Below are positions 22,610 to 25,600 of a stretch of 64,000 nucleotides of DNA, in pieces. The DNA lies in assembly GCA_963762565.1 (NCBI GenBank), contig CAVXLD010000001.1:96001-160000 (forward strand), read 5' to 3'. The stretch is from an uncultured Verrucomicrobiae bacterium. Its GTDB lineage: Bacteria > Verrucomicrobiota > Verrucomicrobiia > Chthoniobacterales > JAFAMB01. Position numbers: made by a program. Every line of letters starts with the position of its first letter. The first letter of the stretch is position 1.

Positions 22610-25600
22610 GGCAATTACCTCGCGAGCTGCGGAAGAGCCATGTTCTTTAAGGGAGAAAACGCGTTCGAGCATGAGAAACGGGGAGCAGATTTTATCCCAA
22701 ACTGTTTAAGCAATCGGTGAGTTATTAGAAAAGGATAAAAAAGAACGAACGCAGCAAATGATGGGCAACTGTGCATTATTCTAAGCGAGGCGCTCCGGAA
22801 ACTGGGTAACAAAGCCGCCTAGAAACGGTCTGGCTTAAGCAGAAAGCGATTTTCCCCTCGTCGTGCGCGCACCCCGGTTTTTACCCCAAAGGGGTAATAG
22901 GACTCAGCCTGGGGTTTTAACCCCAGGAATGCGCCAAAAAAAAGACCCCCGCCCTGAAAGGGCGGCAGATTTTTGGAATGACAAATACATCAATATATTA
23001 TGTAATAGATACAATGTCTTAATCACTGGCACGCATCTTGATTCACCTTGTCTTTTCGACCAAGAACCGGGTCGCGTTCTTGCAATCTCAACAGCTCCGA
23101 TCTGAAGTTCACGCGTATCTTACTGCGACTTTACGCGCCCTGGATTGCGAACCCGTTCAGGTCGGCGGAGTCAGCGATCACGTACATCTACTCTTTGGTC
23201 TTTCCCGAACCGTCTCGCTGGTAGATGTAGTTAAACAGCTTAAAACCAGCTCCACGAAGACGATTCGAGAGAAAGGTCATCACGCTTTCAGTTGGCAAAC
23301 CGGCTACGGCGCCTTCTCAGTCAGCGAATCGAATAAAAGCGCAGTCATCGACTACATCATCAATCAAGAAATCCACCATCGTAAGATGACATTCCAAGAA
23401 GAAATCAGGGTGCTTCTAACCAAGCACAGTATGCGTTTCGATGAGCGATACGTCTGGGATTGAGACACTCTCAATCTGCCGCCCTTTCAGGGCGGGGCAT
23501 TTTTGGGGCGCATTCCTGGGGTTAAAACCCCAGGCTGAGTCCTATTACCCCTTCGGGGTACAACCCCAACGTCCGAAAGATCGGCGCTTCGTTAGAACCT
23601 GACGTTCTTTCGGGAGGCGCACCCTAGCAACGTCACAAATTCCCTCGTTTTGCCTGCTCGCGTTCTAACGCTTCAAACAACGCTTTGAAATTACCTGCTC
23701 CGAAACCCTGACTGCCATGACGGCGGATAACTTCATAAAACACTGTTGGCCGATCCTCAACGGGTTGGCTGAAAATCTGAAGCAGGTAACCTTCTTCATC
23801 TCGGTCGACAAGAATGCCCCGACGCCCTAATTCGCGATAGTCTTCTTCAATCTCGCCGATCCGTGACGGTAGTTCTTCGTAGTAGGTCTCCGGCACCCGC
23901 AGAAAGTCGACTCCTGCCGCGCGTAAAGCATCAACCGTGGCAATGATATCTTTCGTCGCTAGAGCGATATGTTGCACCCCGGGCCCGCCGTAGTGAATCA
24001 GGTATTCCTCGATCTGGCTGCGCCTTTTTCCTTCCGCTGGTTCATTAATCGGAAACTTGATGCGTCCGGAACCGTTTTGCATGACTTTGCTCATCAGGGC
24101 CGAATAGTCAGTACTGATGTCTTTATCGCTGAAGTGGGTTAGCTGGCTAAACCCAAGGACTTCACGATAGAAATCAACCCAATGATTCATCTGCCCTAAT
24201 TCGACGTTCCCAACGATGTGGTCGATGGCCGCGATCCCGGTCTCTGGCGCCGGAGGCTGATTGGCGATTTCTTTAAAGCCTGGAAAGATCCCGCGATAGT
24301 TTCGGCGCTCAATGAAACTGTGTACCGTGTCTCCATAGGTAGCGATCGAGGCTCGCACGAAGCGTCCGCTGCCGTCCTCAAATTCTTGTGGTTCTTGAAC
24401 ACCTTTGGCGCCTCGGCGCAAAGCCTCTTGATAAGCAGCTCGAGCATCACTAACTCTCAATGCGATATCGCGAACGCCATCGCCATGACGCGCAATGTGT
24501 CGTGATACGTCTGGCGCAGAATCCGGAGCAAGTGGTGAAGTTAAGAGAAAATGAACCTGGCCTTTTTTTAGCAACCAGGAGGCGCGATCTCGCACTCCGG
24601 TTTCCAGACCTGAGTAGGCAATTGGAACCAAGCCGAGGGCCGTGCGGTAGTAATGAGCGGCTTGCCGAGCATTTGATACGTAGAACTCGACGTAATCAAT
24701 TCCGTGAAAATCGAAAGGATCTGAACTCATATGGGCTTCTTCGGTTTTGAGTGACGCGTACTCCCAGACGCATCATTGGAGGTGATATTCAGGCTATCAT
24801 TAAGTAGAGAATGAAACAACGGAAAGGACGACCTTTGGTGGGGCGAGCCTCCGGAAAGACCGGTAGGGCGAAAATCTCGGCGCGCCCAACGGAAACCATT
24901 TTTTTTGTGACTCAATCGCGCCGGATTTGAGCCATGCGTGGGCCCTGCATCGTCCGGGACGCAATCGTTCTGTGGCGTGTCGAACCGTCGGAAGTTGCGG
25001 CTCCACGGAGCGGCTCAAATCCGGCGCGGTTAGACGTTTTAAAAAACGCATCCTGGGCGCGCCGAGATTTTCGCCCTACCGGTCCTGGGTCGGCAAAGCG
25101 TGGGTACCCAAGATTCCGCGATCCGGAATACCATACGCCGTGCGCGACTCTGCAATGATACCAAGAGTATCTTTCGACTCGGGGACGAGACGATAAATAC
25201 GCCCTTTGGGGATAATCACATAATCACCGGGACGATAAGGCAGGATGCCGAACTCGGTCTCGAAGACACCAACCCCACGATGGAAGAAATAGAGTTCGTC
25301 GCCATCGACCGTTCGATAGAGGAACGGCATTGCCTCACGCCTCCGAGTTAAATAGAGCGAGAACGAACGCCGGGCACATGCCGCCATGGATTGCATCAAC
25401 AAGGCCGGCGTTCCTTTCGGGTCCGCTAAATCCAGCGTCTCGATCGTCCGGCAATCCATAGCGATCGGCTTTAGAGAACCTTCAATCCGCTTCCAGGCCG
25501 AGGGCATCTCTTTAGCGTAAAGATGGGTGGCTTCACCAAAAAAGCCTTCGCGGCCATACTCCATTTCATAGGTCCCTTCCGGGACACCAACGTGCGCCTG

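Follow-up and report, generated by a model that had tools for sequence, protein, structure and literature searches.

The Acido-Lenti-1 motif (RF01687) as part of a three-hairpin repeat, the probable DNA partner of a TnpA-Y1 subclass 1.2 gene

A 64,000-nt stretch of a verrucomicrobial genome (the window, that is, the whole stretch of DNA that was analysed) holds a match to the Acido-Lenti-1 motif of Rfam (RF01687) close to the gene for a small IS200-like protein, raising the question as to whether the motif is an RNA gene or a DNA site belonging to its neighbor. The Rfam entry is of type Gene; sRNA, Weinberg et al. 2010 (PMC2864571) list the motif as 'RNA? y' in Table 1 and as 'COV nc' in S2, and its function is still called unknown in the accessible text of two 2026 preprints. 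A first-pass annotation of this DNA had read the motif as a DNA-level REP/REPIN that flanks RAYT-like genes. We find that RF01687, filed in Rfam as an sRNA gene, belongs here to a longer DNA repeat that is linked with a transposase-like gene; the occurrence of mirror copies around an IS200-like gene, together with the scatter of the repeat through the genome, indicates that it is most likely the DNA partner of the enclosed enzyme and not an RNA gene. The features of the locus are given below, with positions counted along the window; those with the prefix C1: or C9: are contig positions.

22876..22971, - strand: left three-hairpin unit (inverted-repeat arms; profile match C1:118881-118969 (-), E 5.8e-16)
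22882-22896, 22908-22927 and 22949-22965, - strand: hairpins 3, 2 and 1 of the left unit, with hairpin 1 facing the gene
22973..23001, + strand: promoter-like site of two hexamers with a 17-nt spacer, between left hairpin 1 and the ATG of the gene (consensus scan, 9/12 matches)
23014..23022, + strand: ATG, TCT, TAA, where the Y1 gene ancestrally began, with a stop as its third codon (sequence; Gln at that codon in homologues)
23038..23463, + strand: Y1/HUH (IS200-like) gene of 141 aa, counted from a TTG that is the first start downstream (ORF list; Pfam PF01797 (Y1_Tnp), 77.1 bits)
23473..23566, + strand: right three-hairpin unit (inverted-repeat arms; fold; profile match C1:119475-119560 (+), E 1.3e-17)
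23479-23495, 23515-23534 and ~23547-23559, + strand: hairpins 1, 2 and 3 of the right unit

The gene is bracketed by mirror-image arms of about 95 nt with three hairpins each, seen as a 73-nt inverted pair (22876-22948 and 23494-23566, 90% complementary) and a 32-nt inverted pair (22940-22971 and 23473-23504, 91% complementary). The right arm folds into its three hairpins at -23.8 kcal/mol (z = -3.96), a value equalled by none of 200 shuffles. The single Rfam match in the window at the gathering threshold, to RF01687 (23515-23560; 38.3 bits, cut-off 37), spans the 46-position model end to end and corresponds to hairpins 2 and 3 of this arm, with hairpin 1 sitting 19 nt upstream; the mirror match in the left arm, at 22882-22927 on the - strand (C1:118882-118927), lies just under the cut-off with 35.4 bits. 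RF01687 is hairpins 2 and 3 of a longer DNA site, and the first-pass annotation was correct in equating Acido-Lenti-1 with the two outer hairpins of a three-hairpin palindrome, with the third hairpin placed there about 18 nt upstream. The scan that gave the promoter-like site in front of the gene returned two sites where 0.9 are expected from shuffles, and is weak evidence for a promoter.

The 141-aa product contains HUH (DHVH), WQ and Y---Q--HH motifs and is 40-52% identical to three paralogues with which it can be aligned. Across these four proteins, which are 141-150 aa long, the shared pattern is D/N-H-V-H, W-Q and Y-I-x-x-Q-x-x-H-H, the Y motif reads YI(I/E/Q)(N/R)Q..HH, and H-V-H and the Y of Y---Q--HH are invariant. 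The NCBIfam IS200/IS605 model NF033573 is matched marginally (58.8 bits, cut-off 55) and the RAYT model NF047646 is failed (26.2 bits, cut-off 80), while the intact 149-aa paralogue on C9 has its best, weak matches among solved structures to IS608 and ISDra2-type TnpA chains (E ~0.005). No near-identical copy of the gene was found in the genome, the maximum identity to the window protein being 52%, and no tnpB partner was seen in the window. On its sequence the enzyme fits TnpA-Y1 subclass 1.2 of Quentin, Siguier, Chandler and Fichant 2018 (PMC6006769), for which the sections consulted give ~148 aa, the motifs DH[IV]H, WQ and Y---Q--HH, 1.7 copies and 36.2% intragenomic identity, and not a canonical RAYT, the Y motif of which is YIxxNP (class 2 in their Table 1). 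The term 'RAYT-like' of the first-pass annotation thus holds for the arrangement alone.

The copy in the window has a stop codon right behind its ancestral start. While 79 of the 80 homologues compared open with M-[P/A/S]-Q (or H)-S/A-, the window reads M-S-stop-S-L-A-R-I-L-I-H-L-V-F-S-T-K, and a contig from run X2, which belongs to the study that probably yielded this DNA as well, has 0 differences over 22906-23515. A second paralogue in the genome carries an in-frame TAG.

Among the 150 of 1452 candidates scored in a genome scan with RF01687, at least 30 matches reach the cut-off and at least 53 have E<=0.001, with scores of up to 51 bits. With the right arm as query, plain blastn-short gave only 21 pieces; because the copies are too divergent for such a search a profile is required, and a profile of the extended unit (type 1) gave 90 matches genome-wide, of which 89 are non-overlapping. 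All 22 neighbor pairs less than 1.5 kb apart are ordered '- then +'. Twenty of these have 43-251 nt and no gene between the arms, and the remaining two, with 489 and 505 nt, enclose the Y1 genes at C9:102235-102684 and C1:119038-119463, the latter being the gene in the window. A second unit type has 65 profile matches and 19 pairs, again all '- then +', and the remaining three small Y1 genes lie within three of them, whose arms are 570-583 nt apart. Taking both types together, the polarity is the same in 41 of 41 pairs, where random orientation would give one in four; all five small Y1 genes of the genome lie inside inverted unit pairs, each paralogue with its own unit subtype, and 36 doublets (20 of type 1 and 16 of type 2) are gene-less. 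The first-pass annotation had reported 95 units, 24 pairs of fixed polarity, two of them enclosing Y1 genes, and 37 copies by pattern of a second type flanking three more. The repeat family, the polarity, the enclosed genes and the second type are all recovered here; the counts differ on account of different profiles and thresholds.

The units are spread outside genes, with 60 of 89 type-1 units lying wholly outside ORFs of at least 120 aa, though 84% of the genome is taken up by ORFs of that size. The idea of a CRISPR-like or tandem array was rejected in view of the dispersal of the copies and their inverted pairing. Arms of the same doublet are on average 74% alike and those of different doublets 61%, and the doublet partner is the nearest relative for nine of 44 arms. 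We found no near-identical units or doublets in the genome, and since the best pair is only ~94% alike over 151 nt, recent transposition is not demonstrated. The largest subfamily, of about 46 of the 89 units in a crude sort, has no adjoining intact gene in the assembly, which is 93.7% complete.

The association of gene and unit extends across phyla. We compared the best 80 homologous loci (47-65% identity), from Verrucomicrobiota, Planctomycetota, Acidobacteriota, Deltaproteobacteria, Ignavibacteria, Armatimonadota and others, one of them in the cultured Brevifollis gellanilyticus NBRC 108608, and there is a flanking inverted repeat at 60 of the 79 that were testable. RF01687 is present at 29 of the 80 with E<=0.01 (10 reach the cut-off), placed just upstream of the gene on the - strand or just downstream on the + strand, and its density is 40 matches in 208 kb of homologous loci as against 0.87 per 100 kb in the repeat-rich genome of the window; the one other Rfam row at these loci is a sub-threshold miRNA match. 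RNAalifold recovers all three hairpins from 38 units of 21 loci, with compensatory changes in 11 of 16 pairs. In a planctomycete genome 37 of 37 RF01687 pairs are '- then +', as are seven of eight in a genome of the acidobacterial Pyrinomonadaceae, and the three wide pairs in these two genomes each have a Y1 ORF within.

Motif (E<=1e-3) and gene (E<=1e-20) also co-occur genome by genome. Among 151 Verrucomicrobiota, 13 have both, four RF01687 only, two the gene only and 132 neither (Fisher p ~1e-13), and the corresponding numbers for 121 Acidobacteriota are 25, 8, 2 and 86 (p ~1e-16), although both p values are overstated because kin genomes are not independent. RF01687 occurs without such a gene in four of 17 verrucomicrobial and eight of 33 acidobacterial carriers, two of these eight having 24 and 10 matches. 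Shared ancestry alone was considered as the cause of the co-occurrence and seems less likely, carriers being found across nine of the families listed in the verrucomicrobial sample; here too the counts treat kin as independent.

One doublet contains the remains of a gene. That at C1:854723-855050 holds a 17-codon mini-ORF, MDQSLHRTAFDERYVWD-stop, which consists of the N-terminal M-x-Q-S-L and the final eight residues of the Y1 protein, and tblastn on this doublet matches Y1 residues 130-141 (E 1.6e-4). It is the one credible relic among the spacers of the 20 gene-less type-1 doublets searched in this way, the others giving E>0.06. The cassette of the window itself differs between close strains, as follows.

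22743..23582, no strand: 840-nt segment with both units and the gene, in place of which close strains have 149 nt (one contig each in runs X5 and X6)

The two contigs, of 880 nt (X5) and 2120 nt (X6) and from two metagenome studies, are collinear with 22515/22000-22742 and 23583-24085, with 0-12 differences per piece. The 149-nt allele has one unit-like stretch, with 47 of the 149 nt matching the hairpin 2+3 part, and the difference between strains is not a clean excision, as 149 nt stand in place of 840 nt. Short metagenome skip joints (22924/22925->23475, 22929->23515, 22976->23474 and 23333->23437) match on either side over 22-30 letters, with 88% likeness, and were set aside as evidence of excision because other copies or organisms are their probable source.

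The explanation that we prefer, with a probability of roughly 0.8, is that the element is REPtron-like: a subclass 1.2 gene with two mirror copies of a cognate three-hairpin DNA site that the enzyme would recognise, the same ~90-nt site being scattered as single units and as gene-less, REPIN-like inverted doublets. By analogy with IS608 TnpA and the TnpA-REP of E. coli, the hairpins would extrude when the DNA is single-stranded, for example at a replication fork, and an enzyme dimer would read the shape of the stems together with conserved unpaired letters. Candidates for these letters are the loop of hairpin 1 (TTCA) and a GGCT immediately 3′ of hairpin 2, seen on the other strand as a YAGCC 'foot' 5′ of the hairpin; cutting and rejoining at the foot and loop sites could then move or copy units and doublets. 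The cross-phylum unit-gene-unit build, the co-occurrence and the gene-stub doublet support the DNA-level REP/REPIN reading of the first-pass annotation, while action on the DNA, including enzyme binding, cleavage, mobilisation of the units and the strand used, is what we infer from these relatives.

The likeness to REPtrons (Nunvar 2010, Bertels and Rainey 2011 and Ton-Hoang 2012, by way of PMC3733652; Quentin 2018, PMC6006769), as far as these sources were available, is one of arrangement. In both there is a Y1/HUH gene between inverted palindromic repeats, the flanking repeat is dispersed extragenically and largely as inverted doublets, gene copies are few and are divergent paralogues with a repeat type each, and a short conserved foot lies beside the hairpin. 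The foot of REPs is GTAG, whereas that seen here is YAG and not strictly GTAG; REPs have one hairpin in 20-40 nt, whereas the present unit has three in ~90 nt; the Y motifs differ as noted above; and the hosts, unlike those of REPtrons, are Verrucomicrobiota, Planctomycetota, Acidobacteriota and others. With subclass 1.2 the genes share motifs, length and low copy number, there being five divergent copies at 40-52%. The available text on this subclass (PMC6006769) describes it without an associated REP and generally without terminal secondary structures, whereas the genes described here, in other phyla, are bracketed by structured, dispersed inverted repeats. Since that absence is a descriptive trait rather than a sequence criterion, the repeats extend the description of the subclass and leave membership intact.

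TIRtrons, in which tyrosine-transposase genes (TIRYT) lie between long inverted repeats (Di Nocera, De Gregorio and Rocco 2013, PMC3733652), resemble the element in that, in the text available, some repeats are 'double palindromic', some form moderately abundant families as dimers and an acidobacterial group is included; the likeness is one of description, repeat sequences and enzyme class (1.2 or 3) lying outside the comparison. One TIR repeated family is reported there for Koribacter versatilis, whose chromosome accession is among those in the alignment file that Weinberg 2010 provide for RF01687, and Rfam has 0 occurrences in the searchable text of the Di Nocera paper. In the literature searched, including the available text of Weinberg 2010 and of Di Nocera 2013, we found no publication tying RF01687 to a Y1 gene.

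An alternative is that this is an autonomous IS200-like element, still selfish, with the doublets as MITE-like deletion products, and not a domesticated, vertically kept partnership. The DNA-level mechanism would be common to both and the lifestyle alone would differ. We consider this unlikely, although it fits with the NF033573 score just above cut-off, with the patchy distribution (17 of the 151 verrucomicrobial genomes sampled, 16 of their 79 genera), with up to eight gene matches in an acidobacterial genome, with the presence or absence of the cassette between close strains and with the doublet that holds an internally deleted gene. IS200/IS605 elements (TnpA subclass 1.1; IS608, ISDra2) share the fold family and the HUH and Y---Q motifs, and end hairpins in the DNA would be recognition sites in both. 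But IS200/IS605 ends are described (ISfinder) as carrying distinct subterminal hairpins, whereas the cassette ends here are symmetrical, near-perfect inverted repeats; there is no high-identity multicopy gene, and gene-less doublets are many. The divergence of the paralogues argues against an autonomous element, intragenomic identity being 99.4% for typical IS200 and 36.2% for subclass 1.2 in Table 1 of Quentin 2018 (PMC6006769), as does the fact that every paralogue has a unit subtype to itself, which is also seen in multi-REPtron genomes.

A second alternative, to which we give a slim chance, is that the units act in cis at the RNA level, within mRNAs as terminators or 3′-end stabilisers, roles that have been reported for some REPs, with the Y1 link explaining their spread alone. 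The loop of hairpin 3 is mostly C(TTCG)G, which stabilises RNA more than DNA, and in a scan of the region hairpin 1 is terminator-like in both arms, on both strands in the left unit and, with its T run, 10 nt past the stop of the gene in the right; the region has nine terminator-like sites where 1.8 are expected. These loops and the resemblance of hairpin 1 with its T run to an intrinsic terminator make RNA-level effects plausible, the units are extragenic, and Di Nocera et al. 2013 (PMC3733652), in the text available, argue that REPs are in many cases located downstream of genes and function as RNA. However, the T run after hairpin 1 is usually absent in other phyla, the motif is on both strands at each doublet site, and the loops and the GGCT foot are kept across phyla, pointing to a sequence-specific protein partner. 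The stems moreover have no excess of G.T, with 22 such cells against 46 of A.C, the opposite of what would be expected of an RNA read from the Rfam strand. The covariation of RF01687 reflects selection for the hairpins and does not make RNA the functional form. That each 46-nt two-hairpin motif is transcribed alone as a free-standing, trans-acting sRNA gene, as Rfam files it, is very improbable, for while the stem covariation on which Weinberg et al. 2010 relied (in the parts consulted) and the hairpin 3 loops of C(UUCG)G type would agree with it, the conserved unit exceeds the Rfam model by hairpin 1, the matches form inverted pairs of fixed polarity, the motif brackets a Y1 gene and co-occurs with it in different phyla, the stems have more A.C than G.T, and copy numbers ranging from tens to over 100 in a genome would be unusual for a trans-acting sRNA.

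The REPtron-like reading provides a concrete, testable identity for an Rfam family that has been without a function since 2010. Annotators now label the repeat as sRNA genes, in that genome annotations and, in their accessible text, 2026 preprints report RF01687 as ncRNA. It also provides a DNA partner for a branch of Y1/HUH enzymes that is listed without one in the available text of the reference classification, and with such a partner proposed the biochemistry of subclass 1.2 becomes testable with defined oligonucleotides. The theme of REP/REPIN and transposase is widened from Proteobacteria to the soil phyla Verrucomicrobiota, Acidobacteriota and Planctomycetota, with a larger, three-hairpin unit, and steps of a life cycle are visible in the gene-bearing cassette, the gene-stub doublet, the gene-less doublets, the orphan families and the presence or absence of the cassette between strains.

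In general terms, and with less confidence than for the locus itself, we lean towards the view that subclass 1.2 has a REP-like partner of its own, a three-hairpin unit conserved in at least eight phylum-level groups, with Acido-Lenti-1 as its outer two hairpins. On this view the enzymes would still move the units in trans as non-autonomous mobile DNA, a doublet would arise when the gene is deleted, and a family would persist after its gene is gone. If this is true it would be a second, independently evolved partnership of a REP and a transposase, and an 'sRNA of unknown function' would become a DNA element.

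The element lies between a permease gene and a 4-hydroxyphenylpyruvate-dioxygenase-like gene, where two inverted arms enclose a small Y1 transposase ORF.

21311-22672, minus strand: permease gene, on one side of the element
22876-22971: left inverted arm, three hairpins
23038-23463, plus strand: Y1 ORF of 141 aa, enclosed by the arms (Pfam Y1_Tnp PF01797, 77.1 bits)
23473-23566: right inverted arm, three hairpins
23633-24730, minus strand: 4-hydroxyphenylpyruvate-dioxygenase-like gene, on the other side

The arms are complementary over a 73-nt pair (90%) and an adjoining 32-nt pair (91%), and the right arm folds, with DNA parameters, at -23.8 kcal/mol (z = -3.96; equalled by 0 of 200 shuffles). 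The sole Rfam match that reaches the gathering threshold in the 64-kb window is to RF01687 (Acido-Lenti-1) at 23515-23560 (38.3 bits against a gathering threshold of 37), which corresponds to hairpins 2 and 3 of the right arm; hairpin 1 (23479-23495) is 19 nt upstream of the match and 16 nt past the Y1 stop codon, bearing out the proposal of the first-pass annotation that RF01687 represents the two outer hairpins of a three-hairpin unit. The mirror match in the left arm is at 22882-22927 on the minus strand (35.4 bits). Hairpin 1 and its T run scan as an intrinsic terminator in both arms (22949-22965 and 23479-23495), on both strands in the left arm and directly after the Y1 stop codon in the right.

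The arms belong to a dispersed family. A genome search that scored 150 of its 1452 candidates, and whose counts are therefore lower bounds, gave at least 30 RF01687 matches at or above the cut-off and at least 53 at E<=0.001. Aligned with their flanks, the 30 that reach the cut-off make the third conserved hairpin visible. An 87-column profile of this unit (type 1) yields 90 matches in the whole genome, 89 of them non-overlapping, and every one of the 22 pairs of neighbours less than 1.5 kb apart is oriented '- then +' with hairpin 1 inward; the arms are 43-251 nt apart in 20 pairs, and the other two, whose arms are separated by 489 and 505 nt, contain Y1 genes, as had been claimed. The remaining three small Y1 genes are flanked by units of a second type, similar in build; the profile of this type gives 65 matches, five overlapping type-1 matches, and all 19 of its pairs are '- then +', the three wide ones (570-583 nt) containing the three genes. 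Both types together have a single polarity in 41 of 41 pairs and enclose 5 of 5 small Y1 genes. The polarity and the inverted flanking by a second type stand as first described; different profiles and thresholds account for the small differences in the numbers, 95 units and 24 pairs then and 89 and 22 now for type 1, and 37 copies by pattern then and 65 by profile now for type 2. The units are extragenic, with 60 of 89 type-1 units wholly outside ORFs of at least 120 aa, which by this crude, over-inclusive mask make up 84% of the genome. Arm similarity averages 74% within doublets versus 61% between them, and 9 of 44 arms have their doublet partner as closest relative. One doublet on contig C3 is flanked on both sides, in inverted orientation, by a short and very abundant repeat of another kind (C3:782073-782136 and ~782440-782480), a GTTCTC/GTCGTC-type triplet run with at least 169 blastn-short matches.

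The hairpins are under selection, though not visibly as RNA. Among the 89 units, which are related copies and not independent events, 84%, 88% and 96% of cells in the three stems are Watson-Crick, and most stem positions show several pair types (one hairpin-3 pair is GC in 34, CG in 30 and AT in 13). A.C cells (46) outnumber G.T cells (22), and therefore the units lack the G.U excess that would be expected if an RNA were read from the Rfam strand. When 38 units, taken from the window plus 20 other loci in several phyla, are folded jointly with RNAalifold, the three hairpins all reappear, and 11 of 16 pairs have changes on both sides. Two short sequences are near-invariant, the TTCA loop in hairpin 1 and the GGCT that follows hairpin 2, and this suggests a protein partner with sequence specificity. 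Read on the opposite strand, GGCT(R) becomes YAGCC, immediately 5' of the hairpin, and so resembles the GTAG foot described for REPs (Di Nocera 2013, PMC3733652).

The same arrangement recurs widely. In a scan with one genome per species, we took the best 80 of 535 confirmed relatives (47-65% identity), which come from Verrucomicrobiota, Planctomycetota, Acidobacteriota, Deltaproteobacteria, Ignavibacteria, Bacteroidales, Armatimonadota, Fibrobacteres, Sumerlaeota and Binatia records. An inverted repeat flanks the gene in 60 of the 79 testable loci (one flank was too short), and the recurrent downstream build is hairpin 1, a spacer, CCCAGGG...CCCTGGGCT(R) and hairpin 3. At E<=0.01 RF01687 gives 40 matches in 29 of the 80 loci (in 10 loci the score reaches the cut-off), just upstream of the gene on '-' or just downstream on '+', and the only other Rfam match is one sub-threshold miRNA; the density is 19 per 100 kb, versus 0.87 in the window's repeat-rich genome. 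The genomes of five homologous loci have 13, 11, 29, 126 and 3 matches. Among the 150 listed over these five, 37 of 37 pairs in a planctomycete are '- then +', most 94-110 nt apart, as are 7 of 8 in a Pyrinomonadaceae genome, and each of three wide pairs in this comparison has a Y1 ORF inside.

Motif (E<=0.001) and gene (profile A1 of the Y1 gene, E<=1e-20) also co-occur genome by genome. An even sample of 151 genomes from the window's phylum has RF01687 in 17 and the gene in 15 (13 genomes have both, 4 the motif alone, 2 the gene alone and 132 neither); 121 genomes from the phylum of an acidobacterial carrier have them in 33 and 27 (25 have both, 8 the motif alone, 2 the gene alone and 86 neither), the motif-only count being 7 without G204, a genome flagged unpublished, with the result unchanged. 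Fisher p values of ~1e-13 and ~1e-16 are overstated, as relatives are not independent. A match is directly beside the gene in many sampled genomes (for example on contigs G128:C1, G037:C6, G211:C13, G267:C1 and G189:C37). Two acidobacterial-sample genomes, G242 and G200, have 24 and 10 matches without a subclass-1.2 gene at E<=1e-20; they may hold orphan families of the repeat, or else a gene that has diverged further or is missing from the assembly. At G012:C8:54658-58796, in the phylum sample, the matches recur every ~153 nt, all on the minus strand, as a tandem array and not as inverted doublets, with a Y1 gene (57443-57889) inside.

The label RAYT holds for the REPtron-like arrangement and not for the enzyme, which scores 26.2 against a cut-off of 80 with the NCBIfam RAYT model, far below, and 58.8 against 55 with the IS200/IS605 model, just above. 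Four intact paralogues (40-52% identity to the window's protein) keep the motifs D/N-H-V-H, W-Q and Y-I-x-x-Q-x-x-H-H, and the closest solved structures to the intact C9 paralogue are IS608 and ISDra2-type TnpA chains (E ~0.005). Judged by these features the enzymes fit subclass 1.2 of Quentin et al. (2018, PMC6006769), described there with 148 aa, DH[IV]H, WQ and YIKNQKEHH, 1.7 copies per genome at 36% identity, and mostly cyanobacterial and Bacteroidetes hosts; its entry reads 'REP: no', generally without terminal secondary structures. The genome also has four ~350-aa paralogues with a Y1_Tnp domain (C1:531665-532711, C5:482843, C12:565110 and C3:501577), and in the one examined H-Y-H and Y-I-H-L-N-P match the class-2 (RAYT-like) signatures of Table 1 in that paper.

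Homologues begin M-[P/A/S]-Q(or H)-S/A- in 79 of 80 cases. The window has ATG TCT TAA (23014-23022) and then, in frame, S-L-A-R-I-L-I-H-L-V-F-S-T-K, so that the third codon, for a conserved Gln, is a stop in an otherwise intact frame; either this is a very recent knock-out or translation starts at TTG 23038 without the first eight residues. A contig from metagenome run X2, of the same study as the window's likely source, confirms the stop-codon letters. Another of the genome's five small Y1 genes, one flanked by type-2 units (C3:55404-55847), has an in-frame TAG, which brings the interrupted ones to two.

Traces of a life cycle are seen outside the window in the gene-less doublet C1:854723-855050, whose 164-nt spacer (C1:854806-854969) contains a 17-codon mini-ORF, MDQSLHRTAFDERYVWD-stop, made of the family's N-terminal M-x-Q-S-L (first five) and the last eight Y1 residues. 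This composition of both gene ends indicates that at least this doublet is an internally deleted descendant of a cassette that carried the gene. An AT-rich stretch upstream of the mini-ORF resembles that before the window's gene. No credible gene relic was found in the remaining gene-less type-1 doublets (1 of 20 only). The relic-bearing doublet belongs to the largest unit subfamily (~46 of 89 by a crude sort), beside which no intact gene is found in this assembly (93.7% complete). Contigs from runs X5 and X6, of two further studies, have 149 nt between 22742 and 23583, versus 840 nt in the window, with flanks 98-100% identical, and thus close relatives differ in whether they carry the cassette. 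The 149-nt allele matches the hairpin 2+3 part over 47 nt, and other contigs in X5 and X7 have the left junction and the Y1 gene in diverged form.

The motif was originally listed as 'RNA? y' in Acidobacteria and Lentisphaerae (Weinberg 2010, PMC2864571, Table 1), with 'COV nc' and 89 representatives in supplement S2. GTAG REPs in the PVC group, and TIRtrons, Y1 genes flanked by long inverted repeats that include an acidobacterial group, were described by Di Nocera (2013, PMC3733652), whose paper has no mention of Rfam. We found no link of RF01687 or subclass 1.2 to such repeats in the RAYT, REPIN and IS200 literature, nor in that on TnpAY1, TnpAREP or REPtrons since 2018, some supplements being outside coverage. 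The element is real, and the reading of Acido-Lenti-1 as a DNA-level REP/REPIN is supported by anatomy and comparison, from which we infer that the system acts as DNA. It would work like a REPtron, with an enzyme of subclass 1.2 in place of a canonical RAYT.
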